Positions 43,479 to 54,742 of a stretch of 64,000 nt of DNA are shown here, in pieces; within the stretch, counting starts at the first letter, position 1; each line of letters starts with the position of its first letter. The stretch is from Gemmatimonadota bacterium (GTDB taxonomy: Bacteria; Gemmatimonadota; Gemmatimonadetes; Palauibacterales; Palauibacteraceae). The DNA lies in contig JAVVDU010000010.1 of the NCBI GenBank assembly GCA_032251515.1, forward strand, positions 5,244 to 69,243, read 5' to 3'. The position numbers and the translations under genes were made by a program. The notes beneath the pieces were generated by a model, which was given only the letters and a program-made list of their open reading frames with translations, did not search any database and was not told where the DNA came from.

Positions 43479-44303
43479 TCAGGTCGGGAACCGCCATCCC
43501 TCGCGGGCGACCTCCGTCCGGCCGCGCCAGCCCGCCGCCGCCAGGAGCGACGGGAGATCGGCGGCGGTCCGGAACGCGGGATAGACGTGCGTCAGGAGAA
43601 GGAGCCCCGGCGCCGCCCCGGCCGCGACGGCCGCGACGGAGGCCGGGGAGAGGTGGTTGTCGACCGCGTGGGAATCCGGCAGGGCGCATTCGCACACGAG
43701 GAGATCGGCCCCGCGCGCGAAGGACGCGAGCTCGGGGCAGGGACCGGTGTCCCCCGTGTAGACGATCGTCCCCGGGCCGCCCGCGAGCCGCAGCGCCTGG
43801 CTCTCGGCGGTGTGCGGAACGGGCTGACCGCGCAGCGTCACCGCCCCGCCGAGCACCGTGTCGGCGCCGGGGCGCATCTCGCAGATCTCGACCGGGAACC
43901 CCGGGTCGGTCACGAACGGGCCGAACGCCGCCGCCATGCGGTCGACCAGGTCCCGGGTGCCCCGGGGCCCGTGGATCCGCAGGGGCTCCTCCCGCGTCTC
44001 GGGCAGGAGTGCGTGGGTGAGGGCGAACAGCAGCCCCGGCATCGCGCCGACGTGGTCGGCGTGGAAGTGCGTGAGCACGAGGTCGGTGATCCGCGACCAC
44101 GGCAGGCCGAGGCGGGCCATCGCCTGCAGCGCCCCGGGCCCGCAGTCGAGCAGGGCCCGTACGGGACCGCTCTCGAGCCAGTAAGCGGAACAGGCGCGGT
44201 CGGCCTCCGGCACGACGGTGCCACATCCGACCACGACGAAGCGGTCGCCCGGTGCAGCGGGCTCCGGAACCGGCGCCGGGGGGCGGCCGCCGGCCTCCGT
44301 CAC
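43479..44303 (-). CDS. MBL-fold metallo-hydrolase, RNase Z/ElaC-like
   Basis: GTG start in a GTGA overlap with the smc stop. FVVVGCGTVVPEADRACSAYWLE...LLDCGPGA...LVLTHFHADHVGAMPGLLFAL (HxHxDH), and a C-terminal LLLTHVYP. Confidence 0.75.
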   Translation of the reverse strand: MTEAGGRPPAPVPEPAAPGDRFVVVGCGTVVPEADRACSAYWLESGPVRALLDCGPGALQAMARLGLPWSRITDLVLTHFHADHVGAMPGLLFALTHALLPETREEPLRIHGPRGTRDLVDRMAAAFGPFVTDPGFPVEICEMRPGADTVLGGAVTLRGQPVPHTAESQALRLAGGPGTIVYTGDTGPCPELASFARGADLLVCECALPDSHAVDNHLSPASVAAVAAGAAPGLLLLTHVYPAFRTAADLPSLLAAAGWRGRTEVAREGWRFPT

Positions 44304-47300
44304 GCGACCTGTCCCCGGGGCAGGTCGCGGATGTCCATCGCCACGAGGGTGCTCACGCCCGGCTCCTGCATCGTCACGCCGTAGATGTGGTCGGCCGCCT
44401 CGATGGTGCGGGGGTTGTGCGTGATGACGATGAACTGGGTGCTCTCCTTGAACCGCTCGAGCATCGCCGTGAAGCGTCCGATGTTCGACTCGTCCAGCGG
44501 CGCGTCCACCTCGTCCATCACGCAGAAGGGGCTCGGCTTCGCCAGGTAGATCGCGAACAGGAGCGCCAGCGCGGTGAGCGCCCGCTCCCCGCCCGACAGC
44601 AGGTGGATCCGCTGCGTGCGCTTGCCGCGCGGGCTCGCCGAGATCTCGATCGGCGAATCGAGCGGATCGGCCGGGTCCTCGAGCCACACGTCCGCCTCGC
44701 CTCCCTCGAACAGCGTCACGAAGATGCGCTGGAAGTTCTCGCGCACCTGCTCGAACACCTGCTCGAACGAGCGGGACGCCGCCTCGTTGATCCGCTGGAT
44801 CGATCCGAGAAGGTCGTCGCGCGCCGACACCAGGTCCTCCCGCTGCCCCTGGAGGAAGTCGAGCCGCTCCTTCTCCTCGTCGTACTCGGCCGCCGCCAGG
44901 AGGTTGACCGGACCCAGCGAGGCGAGCGACTCCCGCACTTCCTCGAGCTCGGTCCGCCAATCCTCGGGAGACCCTTCGGCCGGACGTTCCACGCGCGCCC
45001 GCAGGCTCTCGAGTTCCTCCTCCCATTCGGCCTCGATGCGCTCGCGGATCGCCGCCCGCGCCCCGTGCAGGCGCGTCGCCTCCAGCTCCAGCTCGTGCAG
45101 CCGGTCGGCGGTCTGCCGCTCCCGCTGCCGCAGGGCGCGCAGCGCCGTCTCGCGGCGCTCCACCTCGTCGCGGCGCTCCGCGAGCCCTTCCGTCGCCCGC
45201 GCGACCTCGTCGGCGAGGGCCCGCCGCTCGCCGAACAGGCGCTCCAGCGATTCCTCGCTCGCCGCCAGCGCGGCGTGGCCCGCCTCGATGGCAGCCTCCC
45301 GCTCGGCCTTCTCGGCGGCCAGGCGCCGTTCCCGCTCCGCGAGCTCTTCGTCCCGCTCCGCGAGACGCCGCGTCCGCTCGGCCGCCGCCGCCGCTTCGGC
45401 CTCTGCCCGGGCGATCCGCAACCGCGACTCCTGCAGCGCGGCGCTGCCGGCCTCCCAGTCCCCGGTCGCCGTGGCCAGTTCCGCGCGGCAGTCGGACAAC
45501 GACGCCTCGACCCGCTCGCGTTCCGTCCGCAGCTCCGCGAGCCGCTCCGAGCCCGCCTCCTGCTCCGGCCCCCCGCGGCCCAGCATTTCCTCGAGCTCCA
45601 CGATCCGACCGTCGAGCTCGGCCGACAGCCGCCGGGCCCGCTCGAGTCCCGCGGCCGCGTCGTCCCGCGCCTCGACGGCGGCGCGAAGCCGGACCGATGC
45701 CTCCTCCAGCGCCCGGTCCGCCGCGGCGGCTTCCGCCGCGAGGCGCCGGGTCCGTGCGGACTCCGCCTCGACCTCGCCCTGTGCCTCTTCCACGCGGCGC
45801 TCCAGGTCGTCGAGGCGGCGCCGGAGCTCGTCCAGCTCCGCCCGGCGCCGCAGGGCCCCGCGCCCGCCCGCCGGCCGGCCGATCCGGACCGCGCCGGCCG
45901 CGTCCTGTCCGCTGCCGTCGGGCGCCACCCAGGGCCCGGTCGCCGGCCCGAAGCCCTCGGCGCGGGACTCGACCCCCGCCAGCAGGGCCCGCACCCAGGG
46001 CGCCCCGGCTCCGCGCGCCTCCACGCGCGCCAGGAGTCCCCCCTTTCCGGCCCGCGCGACCGGGCCGGGATCCAGGGGAAGCAGCACGACGCCCTCCCCT
46101 TCGCCCCGCGCCTGCAGCCAGGCGCGAACGCGCTCCACCGTCCGCCAGTCATCCACCACGACGGCGTGCAGGAAGCTCCCCAGGTGTGCCTCGACCGCCG
46201 CGACGTCGGCGGCTGGGACGCGCACGCAATCGGCCAGGACGCCGTGCGTGCCCGGCGAGGCGGCCGGGTCCTCCAGCAGGGCCGTGACGACGGACGGGAG
46301 GTCGCGCCCCGAGTCGAGCAGCGCCGCGAGCGCCGCGGCCCGTTCACGCGCCGCCGAAAGCTCGCCGGCGAGAGCCGCGTGCCGCTCGCGCGCCTCCCGC
46401 TCGCCGTCCCGTCCGGTCCGCTCCGCCTCCCGCGCCGCCTCGAGTCGAGCCTCGAGCTCCGCCCGCTCCTGCGCCGCGGCGGCCGTCCGGGCCTCGTGGG
46501 CGGCGAGATCCTCCGCGTACCGGTCCGCGCCCGCGCGCAGCTCGTCGCGCTCCGCCCGCCGGCGCTCGAGCTCCCGCTGCCGTTCGTGCTGCCGCTCGCG
46601 CAGCGCTTCCGCCTCCGCCCCGGCGGACCCGATCCCGGCGATGAGCCGGTCCAGCTCGGCACGCGCCTCCGCCTCGAGCGCGGCGAGCTCGGAGCGCCGC
46701 GCGCGCAGCCGGCCCACGCGCTCGTCCAGGCCGGCCTCCTCCTCCCGCAGGCTGCGCAGCGCCGCTTCGGCCTCCGTCGCGGCAGCGGCGGCTTCCTCGC
46801 GCTCCTCGGCGATCCGGCGCCGGCCGGCCGCCATCTCGTCCCGCTCGGCGGCCAGTCCGTCGAGGCGCGCGCGTGCCGTGGCGATCCGCTCCTCGGTCAG
46901 CAGCCGCTCCCGCTCCAGGGCTTCGAGGCGCCCCCGCACCTCCTCCAGGCGGCTCGCGGCAGCCGTCCGGTTCCGCTCCCGCTCCACCAGGTCGAGGCGC
47001 AACGCCTCGACCTCGGTCTCCTCCACCCCGAGGCTGCTCTCCGCCTCGGGCCGCACGCGCCGTGCCTCGGCGAGGGCCTCGTCGACCTCCCGCATCCGGT
47101 CCTCGATGGCGGCGAGGCGCGCGTCGGCCACCGCCACCTCGAGCACCAGGCGGCGCTCGCGCAGCTCCTGCCAGCGGCGCGCCCGGCCACGCTGGCGGGC
47201 CAGCGAACGGACCTTGCTCTCGACCTCACCGATCACGTCCTCGAGCCGGCGCAGGTCATGCTCCGCCTGCTCCAGCCGCCGCAGGGCGGTCCGCCTGCGG

Positions 47301-47815
47301 TCCTTGTAGCGGCCGACCTCCGCCGCCTCCTCGAACAACGAGCGCCGCTCTTCGGCCCGGTCGCTGAGAATCGCGTCGATCATCCGGCTCTCGATGATCG
47401 AGTAGGCGTTCGCTCCGAGCCCCGTGTCGCGGCACAGGTCCTGGATGTCGCGCAACCGAACGGCGCGCTCGTTCAGCGTGTAGACGCTCTCGCCGCCACG
47501 CAGCACCGTGCGTCCGATCACCACCTCGGCGTGCGGAACGGAGAGCAGGCCGTCCTCGTTGGAGAGGGCGAGCTGGACCTCGGCGCGGTGGACCGGCTTC
47601 CGCCCCGACGTGCCCTGGAAGATCGCCTCCTCCATCCGGCTGCCCCGGATCGCGGACGGCCGCTGCTCGCCGAGCACCCAGCGCAGGGCGTCGGAGATGT
47701 TCGACTTGCCGCACCCGTTCGGGCCGACGATGGCCGTGATCCCTTCCCGGAAGTCGATGTGGATCCGGTCGGCGAACGACTTGAAGCCGTGCAGGGTCAA
47801 GGACCGGACCTTCAC
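44300..47815 (-). CDS. smc: chromosome segregation protein SMC
   Basis: Start VKVRSLTLHGFKSFADRIHIDFREGITAIVGPNGCGKSN (Walker A). Long coiled coils, a hinge, the C-terminal signature LSGGERALTALALLF, and Walker B VMDEVDAPLDE. 1171 aa. The upstream 470 codons of the 1641-aa ORF are a non-coding extension. Confidence 0.9.
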   Translation of the reverse strand: MKVRSLTLHGFKSFADRIHIDFREGITAIVGPNGCGKSNISDALRWVLGEQRPSAIRGSRMEEAIFQGTSGRKPVHRAEVQLALSNEDGLLSVPHAEVVIGRTVLRGGESVYTLNERAVRLRDIQDLCRDTGLGANAYSIIESRMIDAILSDRAEERRSLFEEAAEVGRYKDRRRTALRRLEQAEHDLRRLEDVIGEVESKVRSLARQRGRARRWQELRERRLVLEVAVADARLAAIEDRMREVDEALAEARRVRPEAESSLGVEETEVEALRLDLVERERNRTAAASRLEEVRGRLEALERERLLTEERIATARARLDGLAAERDEMAAGRRRIAEEREEAAAAATEAEAALRSLREEEAGLDERVGRLRARRSELAALEAEARAELDRLIAGIGSAGAEAEALRERQHERQRELERRRAERDELRAGADRYAEDLAAHEARTAAAAQERAELEARLEAAREAERTGRDGEREARERHAALAGELSAARERAAALAALLDSGRDLPSVVTALLEDPAASPGTHGVLADCVRVPAADVAAVEAHLGSFLHAVVVDDWRTVERVRAWLQARGEGEGVVLLPLDPGPVARAGKGGLLARVEARGAGAPWVRALLAGVESRAEGFGPATGPWVAPDGSGQDAAGAVRIGRPAGGRGALRRRAELDELRRRLDDLERRVEEAQGEVEAESARTRRLAAEAAAADRALEEASVRLRAAVEARDDAAAGLERARRLSAELDGRIVELEEMLGRGGPEQEAGSERLAELRTERERVEASLSDCRAELATATGDWEAGSAALQESRLRIARAEAEAAAAAERTRRLAERDEELAERERRLAAEKAEREAAIEAGHAALAASEESLERLFGERRALADEVARATEGLAERRDEVERRETALRALRQRERQTADRLHELELEATRLHGARAAIRERIEAEWEEELESLRARVERPAEGSPEDWRTELEEVRESLASLGPVNLLAAAEYDEEKERLDFLQGQREDLVSARDDLLGSIQRINEAASRSFEQVFEQVRENFQRIFVTLFEGGEADVWLEDPADPLDSPIEISASPRGKRTQRIHLLSGGERALTALALLFAIYLAKPSPFCVMDEVDAPLDESNIGRFTAMLERFKESTQFIVITHNPRTIEAADHIYGVTMQEPGVSTLVAMDIRDLPRGQVA

Positions 47816-49350
47816 CACGGCCTCCCGCGCCGGGATACCAGCCGCGGCTCCTGGCCCGCGGCTCGCAGCATCTCGCCCAGCGGAGCCGCCGCCTCCTCGG
47901 ACTCGAAGGCGCCGGCGTACAGCGCGTACACCTCCTGCCCTTCCTCTCCGGCCGGCACGACGTAAGCGATCCCCGGGGAAAGGCCCGCCTCCTCGAGACG
48001 GCGCACGGCCGCCCGGCCCTCGTCCGCGGTGTGGAACACGCCGACGAGCCACGCGAGACCGACGGGCCGCACGTCCCACGCCCGCGCCCGCTCCTTGTGT
48101 CCCGCCTCCACGAGCTCGCGCATCAGCGATTCCCCCGCGGTCCGCTCCGCCCGCGCCCCGGCCAGCACGCGGTAGTAGACCCGCCCCCGGATCGGCGTGG
48201 GCGCCACGAACAGCGCCGCCGCACGGCCGCCCTCCCGCAGCTGGCGCGCCGCGTCCTCGGGCCGCGCGAAGCTCGCGATCAGAACGGAATACGGCAGCTC
48301 GGGGGCGGCCGGGCCCGCGGGCAGCTCCGGCGGAGCGAACTCCGCCGGGCCCTCTCCCGGATCCGGGTCGTCCGCGGCGTCCGCTCCCGCGGCGGCCCGA
48401 CCGGCGGACGGCCCGCCAGCCTCGCCCGGACCGGACGCATCCGCCACGACGGCGCCTTCCGGCGCGCCATCGCCGTCCCCGCTGCCCCCGGCCAGCAACG
48501 CCCACGCCAGCACTGCCCCGACGGCGAACACGGCGACGACGATGGGCAGCTGCCACCCGAATCGGCGGCGCGGTGGTCGGTCGGTCGCCCCCGCGCGCCC
48601 CTCCGGCGCGGCGGCGCCTCCCGCCGCGCGGCCCTCTCCCGCGGCGGCGGCGTCTCCCGGGCCCGTGGCCGCCCTCATCGCCTCCGCTTCGGCCCCGGGC
48701 CGAGGAGCGCCCGCCGGCCGCTCGACCCGCGCGAGGAGCGGCGCACCTGCCAGCAGGGCCGGTTCCTTCACGTCGCCGATCGCGATGCAGCCGTCCAGGG
48801 GAAGGTCGAAGTCCGGATCCGGTCCGTACTCGCCGGCCAGGTCCTCCTCCGCCACGTAGAGGAGCACCGTGCCGCCCCGTTCGGCCACCCGGCGCAGCAG
48901 CCGATGGAATGCCGGAACCTCGCGCAGGCGGCCGAGGGGGAGGGCCCGGGCACCCGCCGGCAGATACGCGAACGCCTGGCGCGGCGCGGAACGCGCGGCC
49001 CGCGACAGGGGAAGGTCTCCGGCGAGCGAGCGGGTGAGACCGGGCGCGTCCACCGCGTCCATCAGACCGTCCAGCTCCTCCGCGCCCGGCACCGTGCAGG
49101 CGAGAAACGTGCGGCCCCGCCGCCGGCCCACCAGGTCGGCGAGGCCCGCGGCCACGCCCGCGGACCAGGCCCCCCCGCCCCGCTCGCGGACCAGCGCCAC
49201 CACCGAGGCGGACGCGGGAAGCCACGGGATGGCCTCGCCTGCCGGCTCGGCCCCGGGCTCCGGTCCGCGCTCCGGTCCGCGCTCCGTCACGGGCCCCGAT
49301 CGGGACCCCGGCCCGGCCACCGGCTCAGGCATCCGGCCCGACTCAGGCAT
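47812..49350 (-). CDS. SPOR-domain protein with a cytoplasmic degenerate ParA/MinD-like domain (bitopic)
   Basis: Stop overlaps the smc start. The N-terminal region SVVALVRERGGGAWSAGVAAGLADLVGRRRGRTFLACTVPG aligns by eye to a ParA/MinD deviant Walker A in which both lysines are lost. TM segment LPIVVAVFAVGAVLAWALL. C-terminal tandem SPOR-like repeats (YSVLIASFARPEDAARQL...; YALYAGAFESEEAAAPLGEML). Confidence 0.55.
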   Translation of the reverse strand: MPESGRMPEPVAGPGSRSGPVTERGPERGPEPGAEPAGEAIPWLPASASVVALVRERGGGAWSAGVAAGLADLVGRRRGRTFLACTVPGAEELDGLMDAVDAPGLTRSLAGDLPLSRAARSAPRQAFAYLPAGARALPLGRLREVPAFHRLLRRVAERGGTVLLYVAEEDLAGEYGPDPDFDLPLDGCIAIGDVKEPALLAGAPLLARVERPAGAPRPGAEAEAMRAATGPGDAAAAGEGRAAGGAAAPEGRAGATDRPPRRRFGWQLPIVVAVFAVGAVLAWALLAGGSGDGDGAPEGAVVADASGPGEAGGPSAGRAAAGADAADDPDPGEGPAEFAPPELPAGPAAPELPYSVLIASFARPEDAARQLREGGRAAALFVAPTPIRGRVYYRVLAGARAERTAGESLMRELVEAGHKERARAWDVRPVGLAWLVGVFHTADEGRAAVRRLEEAGLSPGIAYVVPAGEEGQEVYALYAGAFESEEAAAPLGEMLRAAGQEPRLVSRRGRPW

Positions 49351-50893
49351 CCGGCTCGATTCCCGTCACCCAGCTCTGCAGCCGGCGCTCGCGCTGGAGC
49401 TGCCGGGCGGCCGCGTCCGCCTCGGCCCGGGTGGCGAACGGGCCCACGAGGCCGCGATGCCAGGTCTCGCCCGCGAGGTCGCGGATCGTCTGGACCGCGA
49501 CCGGAAACCCGGCCTCGGAGAGGTCCGTCACCAGCCGCTCGATCCCTTCCGGCTGCCGCGCGGAACCGACGATCGCGTAGTAGCCCGGCGGCGGTCCCGT
49601 CTCGCCGCCCTCCGCCGGCGGCAGTTCCTCCGGCGGGCCCGCGCCGTCGGGCGCCGTCCGCTCGCCCTCCGCCGCCGCGAGCGCGTCCCGCGGGGCGCGA
49701 CGGCCGGGATCCGCCGGCGGTCCGCCCGCTTCCGCGACGTCAGGGCGCGGGACGGGCGGCACCCAGCGGACCGGAACCCACCAGGCGTCGGCCGGGGCCT
49801 CGAGCGGGCGGGAGCCGCCGCCCGGCGCCACGAGCCGCAGTCCGTCCGCCGTGCGGGAGAGCACGCCGCCATCCGGCAGGCCGAGCGGCAGGTCGCCGGC
49901 CCACGTGCCCCTGACCTCCACGGGCAGCCCCCCGGAGACGGGCAGCCGCCAGATGGCCTCCCCGTCCGTGACGAGCAGCGCCTCGCCGAACAGCGACGGC
50001 CGGATCTCGCGAGCCGTCGCCGGAAGCGTCGCGAGGCGCCGGACGGTGAACGCGAACCGGTTCACCGCGAAGATGGCCGGGGGATCCGCGATGGCGGCGT
50101 AGATCTCGTGCGAAGAGGGCGATGCGGCCAGCGCCGTGATCGGGCCGTCGAACCTGGCCCTCCCGACCGGCTCCAGCGACTCGACCGCCAGCGCGACGAG
50201 CGCCCGCGGGTCATCGTCATCCCGGAAGACCAGCCGTCGTCCCCAGCCCGCCACGAGCCCCGGAGGGGGGGCGCCCACGCCGCCCGTTTCCGGCGGCGCG
50301 GTCGCATCCGAATGCGGGATGACCTGGAGCGTCGCGCGGCCCTCCGCCTCCGCCAGCACCGCCACCCCGTCGTGGATCGCGCCGGCCCACAGGACGTTCC
50401 CGGACGCCTCGTGCTCCCACCGGCGATCGCCTGCGAGCGCCAGCAGGTCCGGCGCCCCGGCCGCGGCCCAGGCGACGGCCCCTTCCCCGGAGGCGCGCAG
50501 CCGGAGCTCGCCCCGCGCGATCCGGCCCAGTTCCGTGACCGAATCGCGGGCGACGTCGTACCGGAAGACGCGGCCGGCCGGCCCGGCCAGCGCCACGAGC
50601 GCTCCCTCGAGGTGCCGCGCCTCGGCGACCGGCGGCAGGCGGGTGCCCCCTTCGCGCACCGTCCGGTCGGGCGACGCGAGATCCCGCAGCTGTGCCGGTC
50701 CTCCGTCCCGCGGCAGGGCGAGCAGACCCCACTCCTCGGCAGCCCGGCCGACCACGAGAGCCGTGCCTTGCGGAGCCGGTGCGTCGGCCCGCCGCTCCGG
50801 GCGCTGGTCGGACCGGCCGTCGCAGCCCGCGGCGGCGAGGACGGCGGCCGCCACGGCCAGGATTCCGTGCCTTCGTGCAGTTCGTGGTGCCAA
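49343..50893 (-). CDS. SPOR-domain lipoprotein
   Basis: TTG start. Lipoprotein signal RRHGILAVAAAVLAAAGC, a repeat-rich central region that may be a beta-propeller, and a C-terminal SPOR domain (YYAIVGSARQPEGIERLVTDLSEAGFPVAVQTI...GLVGPFATRAEADAAARQLQRE). Overlaps the next gene by 8 nt. Confidence 0.55.
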   Translation of the reverse strand: MAPRTARRHGILAVAAAVLAAAGCDGRSDQRPERRADAPAPQGTALVVGRAAEEWGLLALPRDGGPAQLRDLASPDRTVREGGTRLPPVAEARHLEGALVALAGPAGRVFRYDVARDSVTELGRIARGELRLRASGEGAVAWAAAGAPDLLALAGDRRWEHEASGNVLWAGAIHDGVAVLAEAEGRATLQVIPHSDATAPPETGGVGAPPPGLVAGWGRRLVFRDDDDPRALVALAVESLEPVGRARFDGPITALAASPSSHEIYAAIADPPAIFAVNRFAFTVRRLATLPATAREIRPSLFGEALLVTDGEAIWRLPVSGGLPVEVRGTWAGDLPLGLPDGGVLSRTADGLRLVAPGGGSRPLEAPADAWWVPVRWVPPVPRPDVAEAGGPPADPGRRAPRDALAAAEGERTAPDGAGPPEELPPAEGGETGPPPGYYAIVGSARQPEGIERLVTDLSEAGFPVAVQTIRDLAGETWHRGLVGPFATRAEADAAARQLQRERRLQSWVTGIEPDA

Positions 50894-51027
50894 CGAGCTC
50901 GCCTCAGGGGTTCGCGTGCGGCCTGCGCCGCGGGACGGCGCCTCCGGCCGCCGAATAGTGCCCCACCGGACGATCCCCCGCAAGAAACCCGGAACGCGCC
51001 TGCCGATGCGACCCGTTGACGCCCGGC

Positions 51028-54000
51028 TCAGAAGATCTCCCCCACCGACACGGACCAGATCCCGTCGCCCGGCCCGCGCGAACGCCCCGTGGGAACGGCG
51101 TAGTCGAGCCGCAGGATCGCGAAGAACAGGTTCAACCGGATGCCCGCGCCGTAGCTGGCCAGCGGCGCCCGCCGGCGCACGATGTCGTCGTCCCGGTCCC
51201 GCTGCAGGACCAGCGACGACCGTCCCGGCGTCCACGCCACGCCCAGGTCGAAGAACAGCGTCGCGTCGAGCGCCGGGAAGTTCAGCGGCAGCCAGGCATC
51301 CTTGCGGGCGTTGAGGAGCGGCAGACGCATCTCGGAGTTCAGCAGCAGGACGCTCGACCCGATGAGTTGCTCCTGCGCCGGACAGAACAGGTCGGAGCCG
51401 CTGCGCTCCCGGGAAGCGACGCATTCGTCGAGCTCGAAGGAGCCGAGATCGTATCCGCGGAGGAAGTACGGGCCGCCCCACGCGAACGTGAACTCCTCCG
51501 CGTCGTCGCCCGCCGTCGTCCCGACGCGTGTGAACGAGAGCAGCCGCTGCGCGAACACGAGGGAGCCGGGGAGCGGCGTGTAGTGCCGCAGGTCCGCTGT
51601 CAGGTCGGCCAGGTTCAGGTCGCCGGCCGACAGGGACGCGCCGAGGCGGAGCCGGCGGCCGGCCACGGCGCCCGTGAATCCGGGCAGCGAGTTGTCGAAC
51701 ACGTACGCGATGGTCGGAACGAGGAAAGCCCGCGTCGGTCCGTCGAGCACGGTCGTGAAGCCGTCGCCCCGCGTGGCATCGAAGCCCCGCAGGACGAGGT
51801 CCGTCTGGATCGAAGAGGCCTCGAGGCCGAAGTCGAAACGGGCGAACGAGCTGAGCGGCGCCTGCGCGAGGATTCCCACCGAGCGGAACTGGTCGCGCTG
51901 GAACAGCTCGAACTGTCCGACCGAGCCGGGGCGGCCGGGCACCTCGCCCGATCGGCGGCCGAAGAAGCGGAAGAAGGGGAACTGGCGGAAGCTGACCCCC
52001 AGGTTCACCCGGTTCTTCAGGTACGTGTACGAGGTGAACACCTGCGCGTCGTCGAACGACCCCTGGACCGCGGCGGCGATCCACAGGTTGTGGTTGCCCA
52101 GCATGTCGGACAGGGAGACGAAGGAGCCCCCGCTCACGGAGTTTCCGAAGAACCCGCCCACCTGCGCGCCGATCGTGGGCCGGCCCACGATGTCGGGGCT
52201 CAGCCGGGCCGTGTAGTCCCGGCTGGTGAAGGCCGCCGTGTCCGGCAGAGCGAGGCTCGCCGAGTCGAGGAGGGCCCGGACCGACCGGGGATCTTCGGCC
52301 GCGGCCACCGCGAGGGCCTCACCGTCGCCACCGAGGTCCGAGCGCCGGAAACCCCCGTCGGCGCGGTAGAACGAGGACGGCTCGCCCCCGTCGCCCCGCG
52401 CCCCGTCGCCGTCCACCACCCCACCGCCGTCCGCCGCCCCACCGCCACCGTCGCCGCGCCGCTCCACGAGACGGATCCGTCCGACCTGGTCCGCCGCCGT
52501 CGGGGTGGAGCCCGGAGCACCCGCGGGGCCGGCCTTCTCCGTCGGCCGGTCCGCCACGTAGATGTTGAATCCGGCGTCCTCGAAGTAGGAGAACGCCAGG
52601 CGGTCCGCCGCACGGGCCCACGTGAGACCGGGACTCGTGAGCAGCGCCCCCTCGCCCATGGCGCCGGTGAGGCTGTGCGTCAGGCGCGTCGTCCGTCCGG
52701 CCCCCCGGTCGTGCAGGTAGACGTCGAACGCGCCGGCCCGCGTCGCCAGGTACGCCACGACCGAACCGTCCGGGGACCAGGCAGGATCGATCGCCGTTCC
52801 GCCCTCCTGGCCGGGCAGAAGGCTCTTCTCTCCCGTCGCCGGATCGAGGATCGCGATCCGCAACGGTCCGAACACGAGGCGTTCGAAGTCCGACTCCGGC
52901 GTGTCGTCCGTCGCGTAGGCCAGCAGACGCCCGTCCGGCGACCAGGCGGGATGGAGCTGCGAGAACCGATCCGCCGTCAGACGCTCGAGGCGGTCCGTTC
53001 CGACCTCCCAGGCGTAGAGGTCGCTGATCCCGCCGCGCAGTCCCGTGAACGCGATCCGCCTTCCGTCAGGCGACCAGGTCGGCGACTGGATGCCGTTCAG
53101 GTCCGGCGTCCAGCGCGACACGACCTCGCCCGTCTCCGCGTCGGCCACGATGAGCGCGTCCCGCCCCCCCGCGGCCGCCACGAAGGCCACCCGCCGGCCG
53201 TCGGGCGCCCACTCCGCCGCCGACGTCAGGTACCGCAGGCTCTCGAAGCTCCCGCTGCGGGCCGCGGCGGCGAGGCGCCGCAGGGGACGACCGGTCTCGA
53301 CGTCGGCCACCCACAGATCGAAGAAGCCGTGCAGGTCGTGCGCCCGGTCCGACAGGTAGACGAGCCGCGTGCCGTCGGGCGACAGGGCGGGCGCGATGTA
53401 GCTCGGCGAGGACGCGCGCCCCGTCGGCAGGGCGTGGTCGGTCACGCGCCGCGCCACGGTCCGCACGTCGCCGGCCCGCCGGATCGACGGCACGTGGGCC
53501 GCCCGCACCGCGTCGTGCCACTCCCGGGTCAGGTCTTCCAGCCCGATGCCGAGGGTCCGCTCGAAGGCGCCCCGGATCCCGAGGGCGCCGGCGCGCTTCA
53601 GCAGGAGCCCGATCGCCTCGTCGCCCCAGCGGGCGCCGATCCAGTTCCACAGAGACTGACCGAAGCGGTAGGAGAGGAAGTCGTGGAACCGATCCATCTC
53701 CTCGATCGTGCGCAGGTAGCCCGACAGGGTCGCATCGCGCATCCAGGCGGACGTCTTGGCGTCGATGCGGCCGACCGACAGGTACTCCGCCATTCCCTCC
53801 ATGAACCACAGGCTGGGCACGAAGGCGAACGGCGATGCGCTCTGCTCGACCACCCCGCGGCGCAGGATGTCGAACTGGAACGCGTGGACGATCTCGTGTC
53901 CGAGCACGTGCTCGAACTCCGCCCACGATCCCGTCAGGGGGAGCAGCACCCGGTCGCGCAGCGACTCGGTGACGCCGCCGGTGGACTCGTCGACGTGCCC

Positions 54001-54315
54001 CCCGAGCACGTTCGTCTGCTGGAAGTCCGTCTGGGAGGCGTACAGGATGATCGGCTTGCGGCGGGCGAACTCGTGGTCGAGGATCCGGCTCAGGCGCCCG
54101 TAGATCCGCTCCGCCATGCGAGCCGCCTGGACCGCGGCTTCGCGCTCTTCCTCGTAGAAGTAGATGTCGAAGTGGGCCGTCTCGATGATCCGGAAGTCGC
54201 GCGGCCGGTACTGGACGCGGTTCCGTGACGACTGGGCGCCGGCCGGCGGCGGAAGCAGGAGCGCGGCGAGTCCGGCGAGGAGGGCCGTGACGGGGGCGGC
54301 ACGGCCGGCGGTCAC
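51028..54315 (-). CDS. secreted multidomain protein: HExxH zincin-like N-domain + TolB/PD40 beta-propeller repeats + C-terminal Omp85 (surface-antigen) beta-barrel
   Basis: Signal peptide ...LLLPPPAGAQS. HEIVHAF HExxH motif. Repeated SPDGxRxAF/Y WD40-like blades. A Gly/Asp linker. C-terminal Omp85 motifs (LRGYDLGSFE..., LFFDLGVAW, GAGIRLNLFFAILRLDYAVP), ending in F. Confidence 0.7.
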   Translation of the reverse strand: MTAGRAAPVTALLAGLAALLLPPPAGAQSSRNRVQYRPRDFRIIETAHFDIYFYEEEREAAVQAARMAERIYGRLSRILDHEFARRKPIILYASQTDFQQTNVLGGHVDESTGGVTESLRDRVLLPLTGSWAEFEHVLGHEIVHAFQFDILRRGVVEQSASPFAFVPSLWFMEGMAEYLSVGRIDAKTSAWMRDATLSGYLRTIEEMDRFHDFLSYRFGQSLWNWIGARWGDEAIGLLLKRAGALGIRGAFERTLGIGLEDLTREWHDAVRAAHVPSIRRAGDVRTVARRVTDHALPTGRASSPSYIAPALSPDGTRLVYLSDRAHDLHGFFDLWVADVETGRPLRRLAAAARSGSFESLRYLTSAAEWAPDGRRVAFVAAAGGRDALIVADAETGEVVSRWTPDLNGIQSPTWSPDGRRIAFTGLRGGISDLYAWEVGTDRLERLTADRFSQLHPAWSPDGRLLAYATDDTPESDFERLVFGPLRIAILDPATGEKSLLPGQEGGTAIDPAWSPDGSVVAYLATRAGAFDVYLHDRGAGRTTRLTHSLTGAMGEGALLTSPGLTWARAADRLAFSYFEDAGFNIYVADRPTEKAGPAGAPGSTPTAADQVGRIRLVERRGDGGGGAADGGGVVDGDGARGDGGEPSSFYRADGGFRRSDLGGDGEALAVAAAEDPRSVRALLDSASLALPDTAAFTSRDYTARLSPDIVGRPTIGAQVGGFFGNSVSGGSFVSLSDMLGNHNLWIAAAVQGSFDDAQVFTSYTYLKNRVNLGVSFRQFPFFRFFGRRSGEVPGRPGSVGQFELFQRDQFRSVGILAQAPLSSFARFDFGLEASSIQTDLVLRGFDATRGDGFTTVLDGPTRAFLVPTIAYVFDNSLPGFTGAVAGRRLRLGASLSAGDLNLADLTADLRHYTPLPGSLVFAQRLLSFTRVGTTAGDDAEEFTFAWGGPYFLRGYDLGSFELDECVASRERSGSDLFCPAQEQLIGSSVLLLNSEMRLPLLNARKDAWLPLNFPALDATLFFDLGVAWTPGRSSLVLQRDRDDDIVRRRAPLASYGAGIRLNLFFAILRLDYAVPTGRSRGPGDGIWSVSVGEIF

Positions 54316-54319
54316 GGCA

Positions 54320-54742
54320 TCAGCTCCCGGCGGGCGACGGGTCCGCGATGCGTGTCGTGGGCGCGTCTCCCCACAGCTCCTCGAGCCGGTAGAAGTCGCG
54401 TACCCGCGGCAGGAACACGTGCACCACGATCGACACGAAGTCGAGCAGGATCCACGAGGCGGGCCCCTTGCCCTCGATCCCCACCGGGCGCGCGCCGGCG
54501 GCCCGGGCGCGTTCGAGCACCCGCTCGGCGATCGCCCGGGCGTGCGTGTCGCTGTCGCCCGAGGCGATCACGAACCAGTCGGCGGCGTCGGACAAGCCGC
54601 GCAGGTCGAGCAGCAGCGGATCGCGGGCCTTCCGCTCCAGCAGCGCCTCGAGGATCGCCGCGAGCTCGGGCGGCTTCGCCTCCGGACGCCCGTCCGGGCG
54701 GGAGCCGCTCCGGCGTCCGCTTCCCTTCGCCCCGCCCTTCAT
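54320..54742 (-). CDS. rsfS: ribosome silencing factor RsfS (iojap)
   Basis: Start MKGGAKG...; WFVIASGDSDTHARAIAERVLE...WILLDFVSIVVHVFLPRVRDFYRLEELW. Confidence 0.85.
   Translation of the reverse strand: MKGGAKGSGRRSGSRPDGRPEAKPPELAAILEALLERKARDPLLLDLRGLSDAADWFVIASGDSDTHARAIAERVLERARAAGARPVGIEGKGPASWILLDFVSIVVHVFLPRVRDFYRLEELWGDAPTTRIADPSPAGS

Follow-up and report, generated by a model that had tools for sequence, protein, structure and literature searches.

Outer-membrane assembly is driven by Omp85 proteins, and every well-studied one that we know of uses POTRA domains. Here we consider a gene (referred to below, together with its product, as X) in a 64,000-nucleotide stretch of a Gemmatimonadota genome, which we call the window, where an Omp85-like C-terminal region follows a zinc protease-like domain and a propeller. 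The locus raises three questions: whether such a fusion is genuine, whether it belongs to a known family, and what role a barrel with these attachments may play in the cell. As detailed below, X is confirmed as a real, intact outer-membrane protein that combines a zinc protease, a TolB-like propeller, and a BamA-type barrel. All coordinates are positions in the window, and all features described lie on the minus strand.

An intact gene for a four-part protein

The open reading frame of X (51028..54315) runs from a GTG start at 54315 to a TGA stop at 51028-51030 and encodes a peptidase-propeller-Omp85 protein of 1095 aa. An earlier note on this DNA had described a single intact frame here with a four-part architecture; the frame is present, on the minus strand, the four parts are real, and every motif quoted (HEIVH, the PDG blades, RGY, LFFD, and the terminal F) is found in X. 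An identical NCBI protein (P0001) is named 'BamA/TamA family outer membrane protein [Gemmatimonadota bacterium]'. An artefactual fusion, in which separate protease/propeller and barrel genes were joined by a frameshift or an assembly error, has a negligible probability: a protein search returned more than 120 homologues, each 1055-1127 aa long and spanning 97-100% of the query, mostly on separate contigs and from separate samples, the match to X is unbroken in 80/80 genome loci and likewise in 80 metagenome loci, and coding GC3 (0.93, the same as in the adjacent genes) is even along the whole frame. The full-length homologues and continuous loci rule out a joining of separate genes, and the fusion is genuine.

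The protein begins with a predicted Sec signal peptide (aa 1-27; 54235..54315), read from the sequence as LLLPPPAGA before the junction and QSS after it, and without a lipobox Cys; the AF2 model has a helix near the N terminus (aa 6-19), and the region is weakly conserved (25% identity). The protease and propeller that follow are separated from the barrel by two further segments. One is a disordered Gly/Asp/Ala-rich linker (aa 598-647; 52375..52524; pLDDT 33-41), which the earlier note had treated as a feature of the protein; family members have as little as 1 aa or as much as 79 aa of it, at 16-22% identity, making it lineage-specific rather than a family hallmark. The other is a conserved pre-barrel segment (aa 648-712; 52180..52374) of the pattern SFYR…GFR…ALLDSA.LALPDT…Y.V.L.PD.VGR, in which S648, Y650, R657, L690, P691, D692, and Y701 are invariant.

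A zinc protease, a propeller, and a barrel

The N-terminal domain (aa 28-285; 53461..54234) has a thermolysin-like catalytic fold and is the catalytic domain of a gluzincin (clan MA(E)) metallopeptidase, which bears out and narrows the original description of an HExxH zincin-like domain. The HExxH and downstream Glu of that clan are intact, as H140, E141, H144, and E173 (the last within WFMEGMAEY). The zinc-binding and catalytic motif, HEIVH (aa 140-144; 53884..53898), is predicted from invariant residues: H140, E141, and H144 are unchanged in all 43 sequences from the phylum and in all 11 of a cross-phylum set. E173 stands 29 residues past H144 at the head of EGMAEY (aa 173-178; 53782..53799), part of a W-F-x-E-G-x-A-E-Y motif in which W170, E173, G174, E177, and Y178 are unchanged across phyla. 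E173, rather than E177, is presumed to be the third zinc ligand because of its likeness to the M1 'WLNEG' motif and to the M9 spacing; we take the 29-residue spacing to be closer to that of M9 than to that of M1. Both zinc-site motifs (HExxH and W..EG.AEY) are kept in the cross-phylum set at 26-42% identity, and of all domains of X the protease is conserved best (68% identity within the phylum, 43% across phyla). The invariance of the zinc site argues for an active site under selection and for predicted catalysis.

X itself reaches the gathering score of no Pfam peptidase family and gives only weak matches to BSP (E 0.013) and M9 (E 0.038), each under the cut-off; some homologues do reach Peptidase_MA_2 (PF13485; e.g., P0267, with 51 bits versus a cut-off of 32). 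The nearest folds include secreted collagenases (M9) and M30 proteases. M9 collagenases, the M30 enzymes hyicolysin and lugdulysin, and M1 aminopeptidases share with X an HExxH and a later Glu in W.xEG, but their catalytic domains are only 10-15% identical to that of X, which is missing the flanking domains of those enzymes.

The second domain is a six-bladed PD40/TolB-like beta-propeller (aa 300-597; 52525..53418), identified by Pfam, profile comparison, Foldseek, and AF2. At least five blades had been counted previously; we find five explicit [WL][SA]PDG blades (at aa 311, 369, 414, 458, and 513) and a degenerate sixth (WARAADRLAF, aa 566-575), with a Pfam PD40 match at E 2.4e-28, over the gathering score. 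In the AF2 model the propeller consists of 6 x 4 strands at a pLDDT of ~90. TolB, itself a six-bladed PD40 propeller, is the best match in both sequence and fold, at E 3e-26 for the propeller profile against the PDB and E 1e-11 in Foldseek; TolB has an N-terminal alpha/beta domain, whereas X is without it. A TolB ortholog was considered and rejected, as TIGR02800 gives 105 bits versus a cut-off of 343 and covers profile positions 197-298 only. The label 'Tol biopolymer transport system component' in the source annotation refers to the domain and is not an ortholog call.

Pfam, AF2, and Foldseek identify the C-terminal region (aa 713-1095; 51031..52179), which ends in …VGEIF with a terminal F, as a 16-stranded Omp85 beta-barrel. 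PF01103 scores 46 bits on X versus a cut-off of 24 (the model aligning to aa 892-1095 only) and is matched by 42/43 homologues; AF2 places 16 long strands over aa 729-1094; and Foldseek returns BamA barrels at E 5e-9 and a probability of 1.0. The Omp85 signature (V/I/L)RG(F/Y) appears as L-R-G-Y at aa 952-955, its RGY (aa 953-955; 51451..51459) lying in loop L6 between strands 11 and 12 of the AF2 model (919-932 and 988-1001). R953 and G954 are invariant across phyla, hhalign aligns the RGY with the VRGF motif of BamA, and a Cys pair present in L6 within the phylum aligns with the L6 Cys pair of BamA. LFFDLGVAW is found at aa 1020-1028 and GAGIRLNLFFAILRLDYAVP at aa 1055-1074; barrel identity is 51% within the phylum and 30% across phyla. 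The PF01103 match, the 16 strands, the L6 motif, and the BamA-like fold make X a member of the Omp85 superfamily, and the Omp85 barrel first proposed by eye is genuine. The accompanying suggestion that the protein is self-inserting is unsupported. X has a normal aromatic beta-signal at its terminus, which suggests that X is itself a BAM substrate. The BamA-like features (the RGY in L6 and the L6 Cys pair) could mean that the barrel is more than an anchor.

The absence of POTRA noted earlier is upheld: 0/43 family members match POTRA models at E<=0.01, and the pre-barrel segment, aligned over 25 sequences, has no Pfam match at E<=10 and none among PDB sequences. That segment is not recognizable as a POTRA; the only hints of a relic are its low-confidence AF2 topology (b-b-a-a-b-b) and its position opposite BamA POTRA5 in hhalign, at a probability of just 5%. 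BamA, TamA, and TamL have the L6 RGF/Y motif and the C-terminal aromatic residue in common with the X barrel, whereas X is without POTRA and carries about 700 aa of unrelated N-terminal domains. Assignment as BamA or TamA was rejected, since X has neither five nor three POTRA domains and the NCBIfam listing holds no BamA or TamA match; only Omp85_fam (22.9 bits versus 200) and TamL (13 bits versus 400) are listed.

Family membership and gene neighbourhood

The earlier note could not assign the architecture to any characterised protein. It matches the 'WD40-Omp85' (or 'WD40-like') subfamily of the Omp85/TpsB superfamily defined by Heinz and Lithgow in 2014 (Front Microbiol 5:370, PMC4104836), in which PD40 (PF07676) repeats are combined with a PF01103 barrel without POTRA. 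Their Table S3 gives as Phyre2 best matches TolB (2w8b, 2ivz), BamA/TamA barrels, and M1-type aminopeptidases (1z5h, 4kxd, 3qnf, 4fgm) (PMC4104836); X has the same domains, in the order aminopeptidase-like (M1-type) domain, PD40/TolB-like propeller, POTRA-less barrel. X is thus a member of an already catalogued subfamily, and its architecture is not new. Those authors counted POTRA-less subfamilies as members of the Omp85 superfamily, advanced a 'BamA-BamB fusion' hypothesis for WD40-Omp85 that emphasized the analogy to BamB and not the conserved zinc site, and do not mention Gemmatimonadota in text or supplements (PMC4104836). A 2024 paper repeats this domain make-up as 'divergent WD40 and peptidase domains', and we found no experimental study of subfamily members in the literature.

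The minor subfamilies were seen by Heinz and Lithgow as patchy and horizontally transferred (PMC4104836); X, in contrast, is found throughout the phylum as a core gene in a fixed syntenic position, and two other phyla show it linked to tamB. Relatives number at least 576 matches in species-representative genomes, and the N-terminal domain matches 1053 protein clusters (at 50% identity) at E<=1e-30, mostly of 950-1190 aa, with the domain set unchanged in distant members. X is a core gene in several related phyla, often lies beside genes for outer-membrane assembly, and behaves vertically; the copy in the window is an ordinary member of the family.

In the window, the stop codon of rsfS (ribosomal silencing factor, 54320..54742; Pfam RsfS, E 1.5e-28) lies 4 nt ahead of the GTG of X, an adjacency that recurs in 21 metagenome loci and in locus L088. 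Downstream on the same strand, as had been noted from the sequence, come a SPOR-domain lipoprotein (49343..50893; …LAAAGC lipobox, Pfam SPOR E 9e-13), a second SPOR gene (47812-49350; Pfam SPOR E 9e-9), and smc (44300-47890; Pfam SMC_N E 7e-67). The SPOR/SPOR/SMC order recurs in most of 80 Gemmatimonadota loci, SPOR genes following X in at least 42 of them, and the block S6-DUF2232-L9-(FakA)-RsfS-X-SPOR-SMC is kept down to 36% identity. No tamB, bamA, or rseP lies near X in Gemmatimonadota. Neighbours of this kind, housekeeping genes of the ribosome and chromosome, say little about function, and gene order kept within one phylum can be inherited rather than functional.

Other phyla place X differently. 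In Cand. Eisenbacteria, seven independent contigs have the order rseP, Omp85-with-POTRA (best NCBIfam match BamA), tamB, and X, with X last; in one of these (locus L085) the start of X overlaps the tamB stop by 4 nt. Ignavibacteria have a tight same-strand run made up of a TamB/AsmA-like gene, RNase R, and X, in that order (15-16 loci and one complete genome). A Rhodothermales contig has X divergent from PBP2-RodA; the context of this member and of three other homologues, on unassigned metagenome contigs, is unrelated.

A candidate role in envelope quality control

Our main reading, to which we assign a probability of roughly 0.5, is that X is a periplasm-facing, outer-membrane-anchored metalloprotease in quality control of envelope and outer-membrane biogenesis. 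X would be exported by Sec, and its 16-strand barrel would be put into the outer membrane, presumably by BAM via the terminal aromatic beta-signal, leaving the N-terminal module in the periplasm, hung from barrel strand 1 by the flexible, variable-length linker. There the gluzincin protease would be packed beside the six-bladed propeller (a putative placement), and the propeller would most likely select or hold an extended or unfolded polypeptide, or a partner lipoprotein, for the protease; substrate-selecting propellers are familiar from tricorn, DPP-IV, and S9 peptidases. The main task of the barrel would be to anchor the protein in the outer membrane and to position it, with a likely work site beside the BAM/TAM machinery and a quality-control or processing role functionally like that of BepA at BAM. 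BepA is an E. coli M48 HExxH periplasmic zinc metalloprotease with a TPR domain that acts in quality control at BAM. The likeness is one of function, with no homology implied: M48 is unrelated to the M1/M9/M30-like gluzincin of X, and BepA is soluble and BAM-associated, whereas X is barrel-anchored.

A periplasmic topology is suggested by the attachment of the N-terminal module to strand 1, whose N-terminal end is periplasmic in Omp85 topology, and by the closest enzyme-Omp85 precedent, PlpD, whose enzyme domain stays periplasmic (PMC11116518). The earlier note had cited PlpD by analogy; the comparison is better reversed, as it favours a periplasmic over a secreted or surface enzyme. Like X, PlpD (a PL-Omp85 or patatin-Omp85, formerly 'type Vd') has an enzyme N-terminal to a BamA-type 16-strand barrel. 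The enzyme of PlpD is a patatin lipase, where X has a zinc protease and propeller; PlpD also dimerises and keeps one POTRA, against which the enzyme packs, whereas X has no detectable POTRA. X itself was rejected as a patatin-Omp85, having no patatin or POTRA match. For the remaining parts of the main reading, an active protease under selection is indicated by the invariant zinc site and by the protease being the best-conserved domain, and a link to outer-membrane biogenesis by the Eisenbacteria operon and the Ignavibacteria gene run.

Alternatively, the barrel might be an active Omp85 insertase or translocase in which the BamB-like propeller and the protease replace POTRA as the periplasmic substrate arm, making X a third OMP-assembly or TamB-docking Omp85 beside BamA and TamA. 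The cross-phylum invariance of the L6 RGY motif, the closeness of the barrel fold and L6 Cys pair to those of BamA, the position directly after tamB in Eisenbacteria, and the hypothesis of Heinz and Lithgow (PMC4104836) all favour this. We nevertheless consider it unlikely, because X is without POTRA, through which substrates and TamB are bound in known systems, its barrel is less conserved than its protease, a POTRA-bearing Omp85 already adjoins tamB in the Eisenbacteria operon, and PlpD illustrates that an Omp85 barrel can act as a mere scaffold (PMC11116518).

It is improbable that X is instead a non-catalytic envelope tether, its propeller binding a Pal-like lipoprotein or peptidoglycan-associated partner to link outer membrane and wall at division sites and its protease fold serving as a binding module. 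Such a tether would account for the SPOR and SMC neighbours and for PBP2-RodA in Rhodothermales, and the propeller is indeed closest to TolB; yet the weak score on the TolB model, the missing TolB N-terminal domain, and the restriction of the SPOR link to one phylum tell against it, and zinc-site residues that are all invariant over large evolutionary distances argue for catalysis. More doubtful still is a type-V-like autotransporter whose barrel exports the protease-propeller passenger to the surface for nutritional protein digestion, as the N-terminal 'passenger', long flexible linker, and C-terminal barrel, along with the secreted M9 and M30 relatives of the protease fold, might suggest. 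The PlpD domain is periplasmic, and a closed Omp85 barrel is impassable to a folded domain (PMC11116518); a propeller of roughly 300 aa with a 260-aa helical protease is unlike a beta-helix passenger, a linker of about 1 aa in some homologues is too short for threading through the barrel, and housekeeping core-gene behaviour with fixed synteny is atypical of nutrient-scavenging exoenzymes. This reading is the PlpD-style one of the earlier note, after the old type Vd model.

Returning to the periplasmic quality-control protease, several observations add to what had been one line in a 2014 catalogue, namely a barrel bearing a TolB-like propeller and a zinc protease that is conserved and apparently active. 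The residues of the zinc site do not vary between phyla, and no other domain is as well conserved as the protease; whole phyla have X as a core gene in conserved synteny, which in Gemmatimonadota is the fixed housekeeping block S6–L9–(FakA)–RsfS–X–SPOR–SMC; and it is encoded with tamB in two phyla, one of which adds a bamA-like gene and rseP. To our knowledge, few of the BAM accessory proteins of E. coli have obvious homologues in the bacteria that carry X. Core synteny, strict selection on the catalytic site, and tamB linkage together make X a candidate for a missing envelope quality-control factor, with relatives in cultured hosts (Gemmatimonas, Rhodothermus, and Ignavibacterium). More tentatively, X may be a third Omp85 component of outer-membrane biogenesis, ancient and passed on vertically, in the group formed by Gemmatimonadota, Eisenbacteria, Ignavibacteria, and Rhodothermales: a POTRA-less barrel at or beside the BamA-TamB bridge, with its own BepA-like protease and BamB/TolB-like propeller. 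If so, quality control of stalled OMPs or lipoproteins in these bacteria would be the work of a membrane-embedded subunit rather than of soluble factors.

The gene and its subfamily

A single minus-strand ORF (54315→51028; GTG start, TGA stop) encodes the fusion protein (1095 aa), and its GC3 of 0.93 is typical of a real gene in a window with a GC content of about 73%. Plus-strand translation of the same coordinates is riddled with stops, and a 1070-aa antisense ORF spanning the gene (51016-54228, plus strand) was rejected as a high-GC shadow ORF, since the GC3 signal belongs to the minus-strand frame. An identical NCBI entry exists (from a Gemmatimonadota MAG), and more than 120 homologues (1055-1127 aa, 44-71% identity) each span 97-100% of the protein, which confirms the one intact fused ORF at 51028-54315 described in the earlier note and refutes the alternative that the fusion is an assembly artefact. 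A scan for promoters and terminators around the gene found none, such a scan being uninformative at 73% GC.

The same note had considered the architecture unassignable; in fact, it has been catalogued. Heinz and Lithgow (2014, PMC4104836) recognised ten subfamilies within the Omp85/TpsB superfamily, among them 'WD40-Omp85' (or 'WD40-like'). Their Table S2 contains architectures combining PF07676 and PF01103, and in their Table S3 the WD40-Omp85 cluster has a barrel matching BamA/TamA, a propeller matching TolB (2w8b, 2ivz), and a column of its own for the best aminopeptidase hit (1z5h, 4kxd, 3qnf, 4fgm, 4ar1). Because these entries cover the PD40, barrel, and aminopeptidase-like parts alike, the architecture can be placed, and the protein very probably belongs to this subfamily. 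The same authors compared WD40-Omp85 to a BamA-BamB fusion, and ascribed the patchy spread of minor Omp85 subfamilies to horizontal transfer (PMC4104836). Our literature searches found no experimental characterisation of the subfamily.

Domain architecture and the catalytic site

Every motif quoted in the earlier note is present where it had been placed, including HEIVH (aa 140-144), RGY (aa 953-955), LFFDLGVAW, GAGIRLNLFFAILRLDYAVP, and the terminal F; the propeller comprises five explicit [WL][SA]PDG blades and one degenerate sixth. Pfam searches matched PD40 (E 2.4e-28, above the gathering score) and Omp85 (PF01103, 46 bits vs a cut-off of 24), while peptidase matches of the protein alone were weak (BSP, E 0.013; M9, E 0.038). 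An AlphaFold2 model built on a 43-sequence alignment (pLDDT 78, pTM 0.71) contains a signal helix (aa 6-19), a sheet-plus-helix domain (aa 42-281), six four-stranded blades (aa 300-597, pLDDT ~90), a disordered stretch (aa 612-674), a small conserved pre-barrel segment (aa 648-712, low confidence), and a barrel of sixteen long strands (aa 729-1094), in which a long loop between strands 11 and 12 (aa 938-987) carries the RGY motif. In a Foldseek search of the PDB, nothing matched over the full length; the structures recovered were TolB (E 1e-11) and BamA barrels (E 5e-9, probability 1.0). A sequence profile retrieved only TolB-type propellers from the PDB sequences, and neither the fold nor the sequence libraries of the PDB that we searched contained a solved structure of any family member. 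Together, these data show a Sec-type leader, a flexible tether, a six-bladed TolB-like propeller, and a BamA-type, 16-strand barrel that carries the L6 signature and ends in an aromatic residue at its C-terminus, bearing out the domain anatomy originally proposed.

The folds closest to the modelled protease domain are M9 collagenase (7wss, score 16.3) and M30 lugdulysin (7bb8, 16.2), followed by ERAP1 (3qnf, 14.2), ColT (14.2), ColG (13.5), other M1 aminopeptidases, factor F3 and LTA4H (12-13.5), and thermolysin (9.6); given these matches to M9, M30, M1, and thermolysin, the N-terminal domain, as modelled, is the catalytic domain of a gluzincin (clan MA(E)). Ten residues (H140, E141, H144, W170, E173, G174, E177, Y178, R953, and G954) are invariant in 43/43 homologues within the phylum and in 11/11 across phyla. 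Judged by its sequence, the W-F-x-E-G-x-A-E-Y box, which lies 29 residues beyond the second His, corresponds to the third-ligand box of gluzincins (WLNEG in M1). The zinc site is intact and strongly conserved in a thermolysin-like fold, and catalysis itself is predicted. Identity within the phylum and across phyla amounts to 68% and 43% for the protease, 58% and 36% for the propeller, 51% and 30% for the barrel, and 16% and 22% for the linker. The Gly/Asp-rich linker, which had been said to take the POTRA position together with the propeller and peptidase, ranges from 1 to 79 residues across the family, and is thus a local feature rather than a family hallmark.

Two further conserved features are worth recording. 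An invariant G-G-V-T-E (aa 113-117; window 53965-53979, minus strand), 23 residues upstream of HExxH, falls roughly at the GxMEN substrate-anchoring strand of M1 aminopeptidases, a match by position only, and may matter for whether the enzyme is an exo- or an endopeptidase. In barrel loop L6, C965 and C978 (window 51382-51423, minus strand) are invariant within Gemmatimonadota and, in an hhalign overlay, lie opposite the two Cys residues of loop L6 in E. coli BamA; in the cross-phylum alignment they are not conserved.

The original reading of no obvious POTRA also stands: Pfam POTRA models match 0/43 full-length homologues, and the isolated pre-barrel segment (25 sequences) gave no Pfam match at E≤10 and none among PDB sequences in a profile search. 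This pre-barrel stretch has a conserved sequence (SFYR…GFR…ALLDSA.LALPDT…Y.V.L.PD.VGR), for which AlphaFold2 gives, at low confidence, a β-β-α-α-β-β fold. In an hhalign comparison with E. coli BamA (using an approximate BamA sequence) it is co-linear with POTRA5 at a probability of only 5%, and we do not claim a POTRA identity for it; it contains no recognisable POTRA and is possibly a relic.

Family spread and gene neighbourhood

When species were each represented by one genome, at least 600 pattern matches were obtained, at least 576 of which encode relatives. The best 80 of these loci are full-length matches, down to 36% identity; nearly all carry Gemmatimonadota labels (Longimicrobiales, Gemmatimonadales), the others being unlabelled or evidently mis-binned. 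At E≤1e-3, a profile of the N-terminal domain retrieved 4516 clusters (50% identity); tightening the threshold to E≤1e-30 left 1053. The top 150 are mostly 950-1190 aa long. Distant members (26-42% identity, 995-1046 aa) have the same Pfam domains. Named sources in the family include Rhodothermales (one cluster), Candidatus Eisenbacteria (a clade), and Ignavibacteria (another clade). A few family members (L013; P0415, P0422, P0452) bear the MAG labels Pseudomonas sp., Candidatus Udaeobacter, Saccharimonadaceae, and Limnocylindria, which are probably binning errors because they conflict with the nearest relatives (Gemmatimonadota, Eisenbacteria). Most Ignavibacteria members (about 1050-1065 aa) lack a precomputed PF01103 match despite their family-like length; the Pfam model seems unable to recognise barrels as divergent as theirs, which may explain their annotation as only 'peptidase MA family' or 'Tol' proteins.

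The findings on gene context are new here. Most of the best 80 genome loci, and about 21 metagenome loci, share the Gemmatimonadota same-strand order S6–DUF2232–L9–(FakA)–RsfS–fusion gene–SPOR–(SPOR)–SMC. In the window, the stop codon of rsfS (ribosomal silencing factor; 54320-54742, minus strand; PF02410, E 1.5e-28) lies 4 nt ahead of the GTG, so the two genes are probably co-transcribed, and their adjacency recurs in Gemmatimonadota-type loci. Downstream on the minus strand follow genes for a SPOR-domain lipoprotein (49343-50893) and a second, Ala/Gly/Pro-rich SPOR-domain product (47812-49350), and then smc (44300-47890), an order kept across Gemmatimonadota.

In two other lineages the gene lies near envelope-biogenesis genes. 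On seven independent Candidatus Eisenbacteria contigs it is last in an operon after rseP (M50+PDZ), a POTRA-bearing Omp85 gene (635-687 aa, best NCBIfam match BamA), and tamB (1350-1440 aa, PF04357), whose end it overlaps by 4 nt on one of the seven. In Ignavibacteria (15-16 loci and one complete genome), a TamB/AsmA-like gene (1500-1700 aa; NCBIfam TamB, E 2e-24; DUF748), RNase R, and the fusion gene form a tight same-strand run, followed by Prs–L25–Pth–H⁺-PPase–S6–SSB–S18–L9. The L25-Pth-H+-PPase-S6-(SSB-S18)-L9 block (12596-19532 in L171, CP065001.1, Ignavibacteriales; 1-6955 in L088) is downstream of the gene in Ignavibacteria and upstream in Gemmatimonadota; it looks like a cross-phylum remnant of synteny, and the sharing of essentially one housekeeping block supports long-standing vertical inheritance in these phyla. 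On Rhodothermales contigs (L081-L083, 4615-7727), in one clade only, the gene is divergent from a PBP2–RodA (elongasome) pair, with a 64-aa ORF between. The neighbourhoods of four further homologue contigs yielded no recurrent partner, and the window contains no tamB, bamA, or rseP.

Topology and possible function

We favour, at roughly even odds (about 0.5), a periplasmic, outer-membrane-anchored protease. The barrel would be inserted by BAM, rather than inserting itself as had been suggested, and the N-terminal module would stay periplasmic, since its junction with barrel strand 1 sits at the periplasmic rim and the linker of some homologues is too short to thread through the barrel. To our knowledge, PlpD, a patatin-Omp85 fusion, is the sole enzyme-Omp85 fusion studied. 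By analogy, its enzyme domain, which is kept in the periplasm (PMC11116518), points the same way, so that a comparison originally drawn for a self-inserting outer-membrane protease or chaperone now favours a periplasmic enzyme over a secreted or surface one. A surface-exposed, autotransported protease, for which that same linker would have to span the barrel, is accordingly an improbable alternative.

The role of the propeller may resemble that in tricorn, DPP-IV, and S9 enzymes, namely to present the protease with a partner protein or with polypeptides in extended form. Were the protein instead a TolB-like tether without catalytic activity, working at the division site, the propeller and the SPOR neighbours would be accounted for; this reading is improbable beside a zinc site invariant across phyla. 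The BamA-type barrel with its L6 signature could instead be that of an active insertase working without POTRA domains, a reading that we regard as unlikely for a protein whose protease is its best-conserved part. For the periplasmic protease, the Eisenbacteria and Ignavibacteria operons suggest a working site at or near the BAM/TAM machinery; the specific role of a BAM/TAM-associated quality-control subunit is a tentative proposal, rather doubtful at present.

The protein is a further member of the known but uncharacterised WD40-Omp85 subfamily. Its interest lies in strict catalytic-site conservation, core-gene synteny, and recurrent tamB linkage, which together open a long-ignored Omp85 subfamily to experiment.
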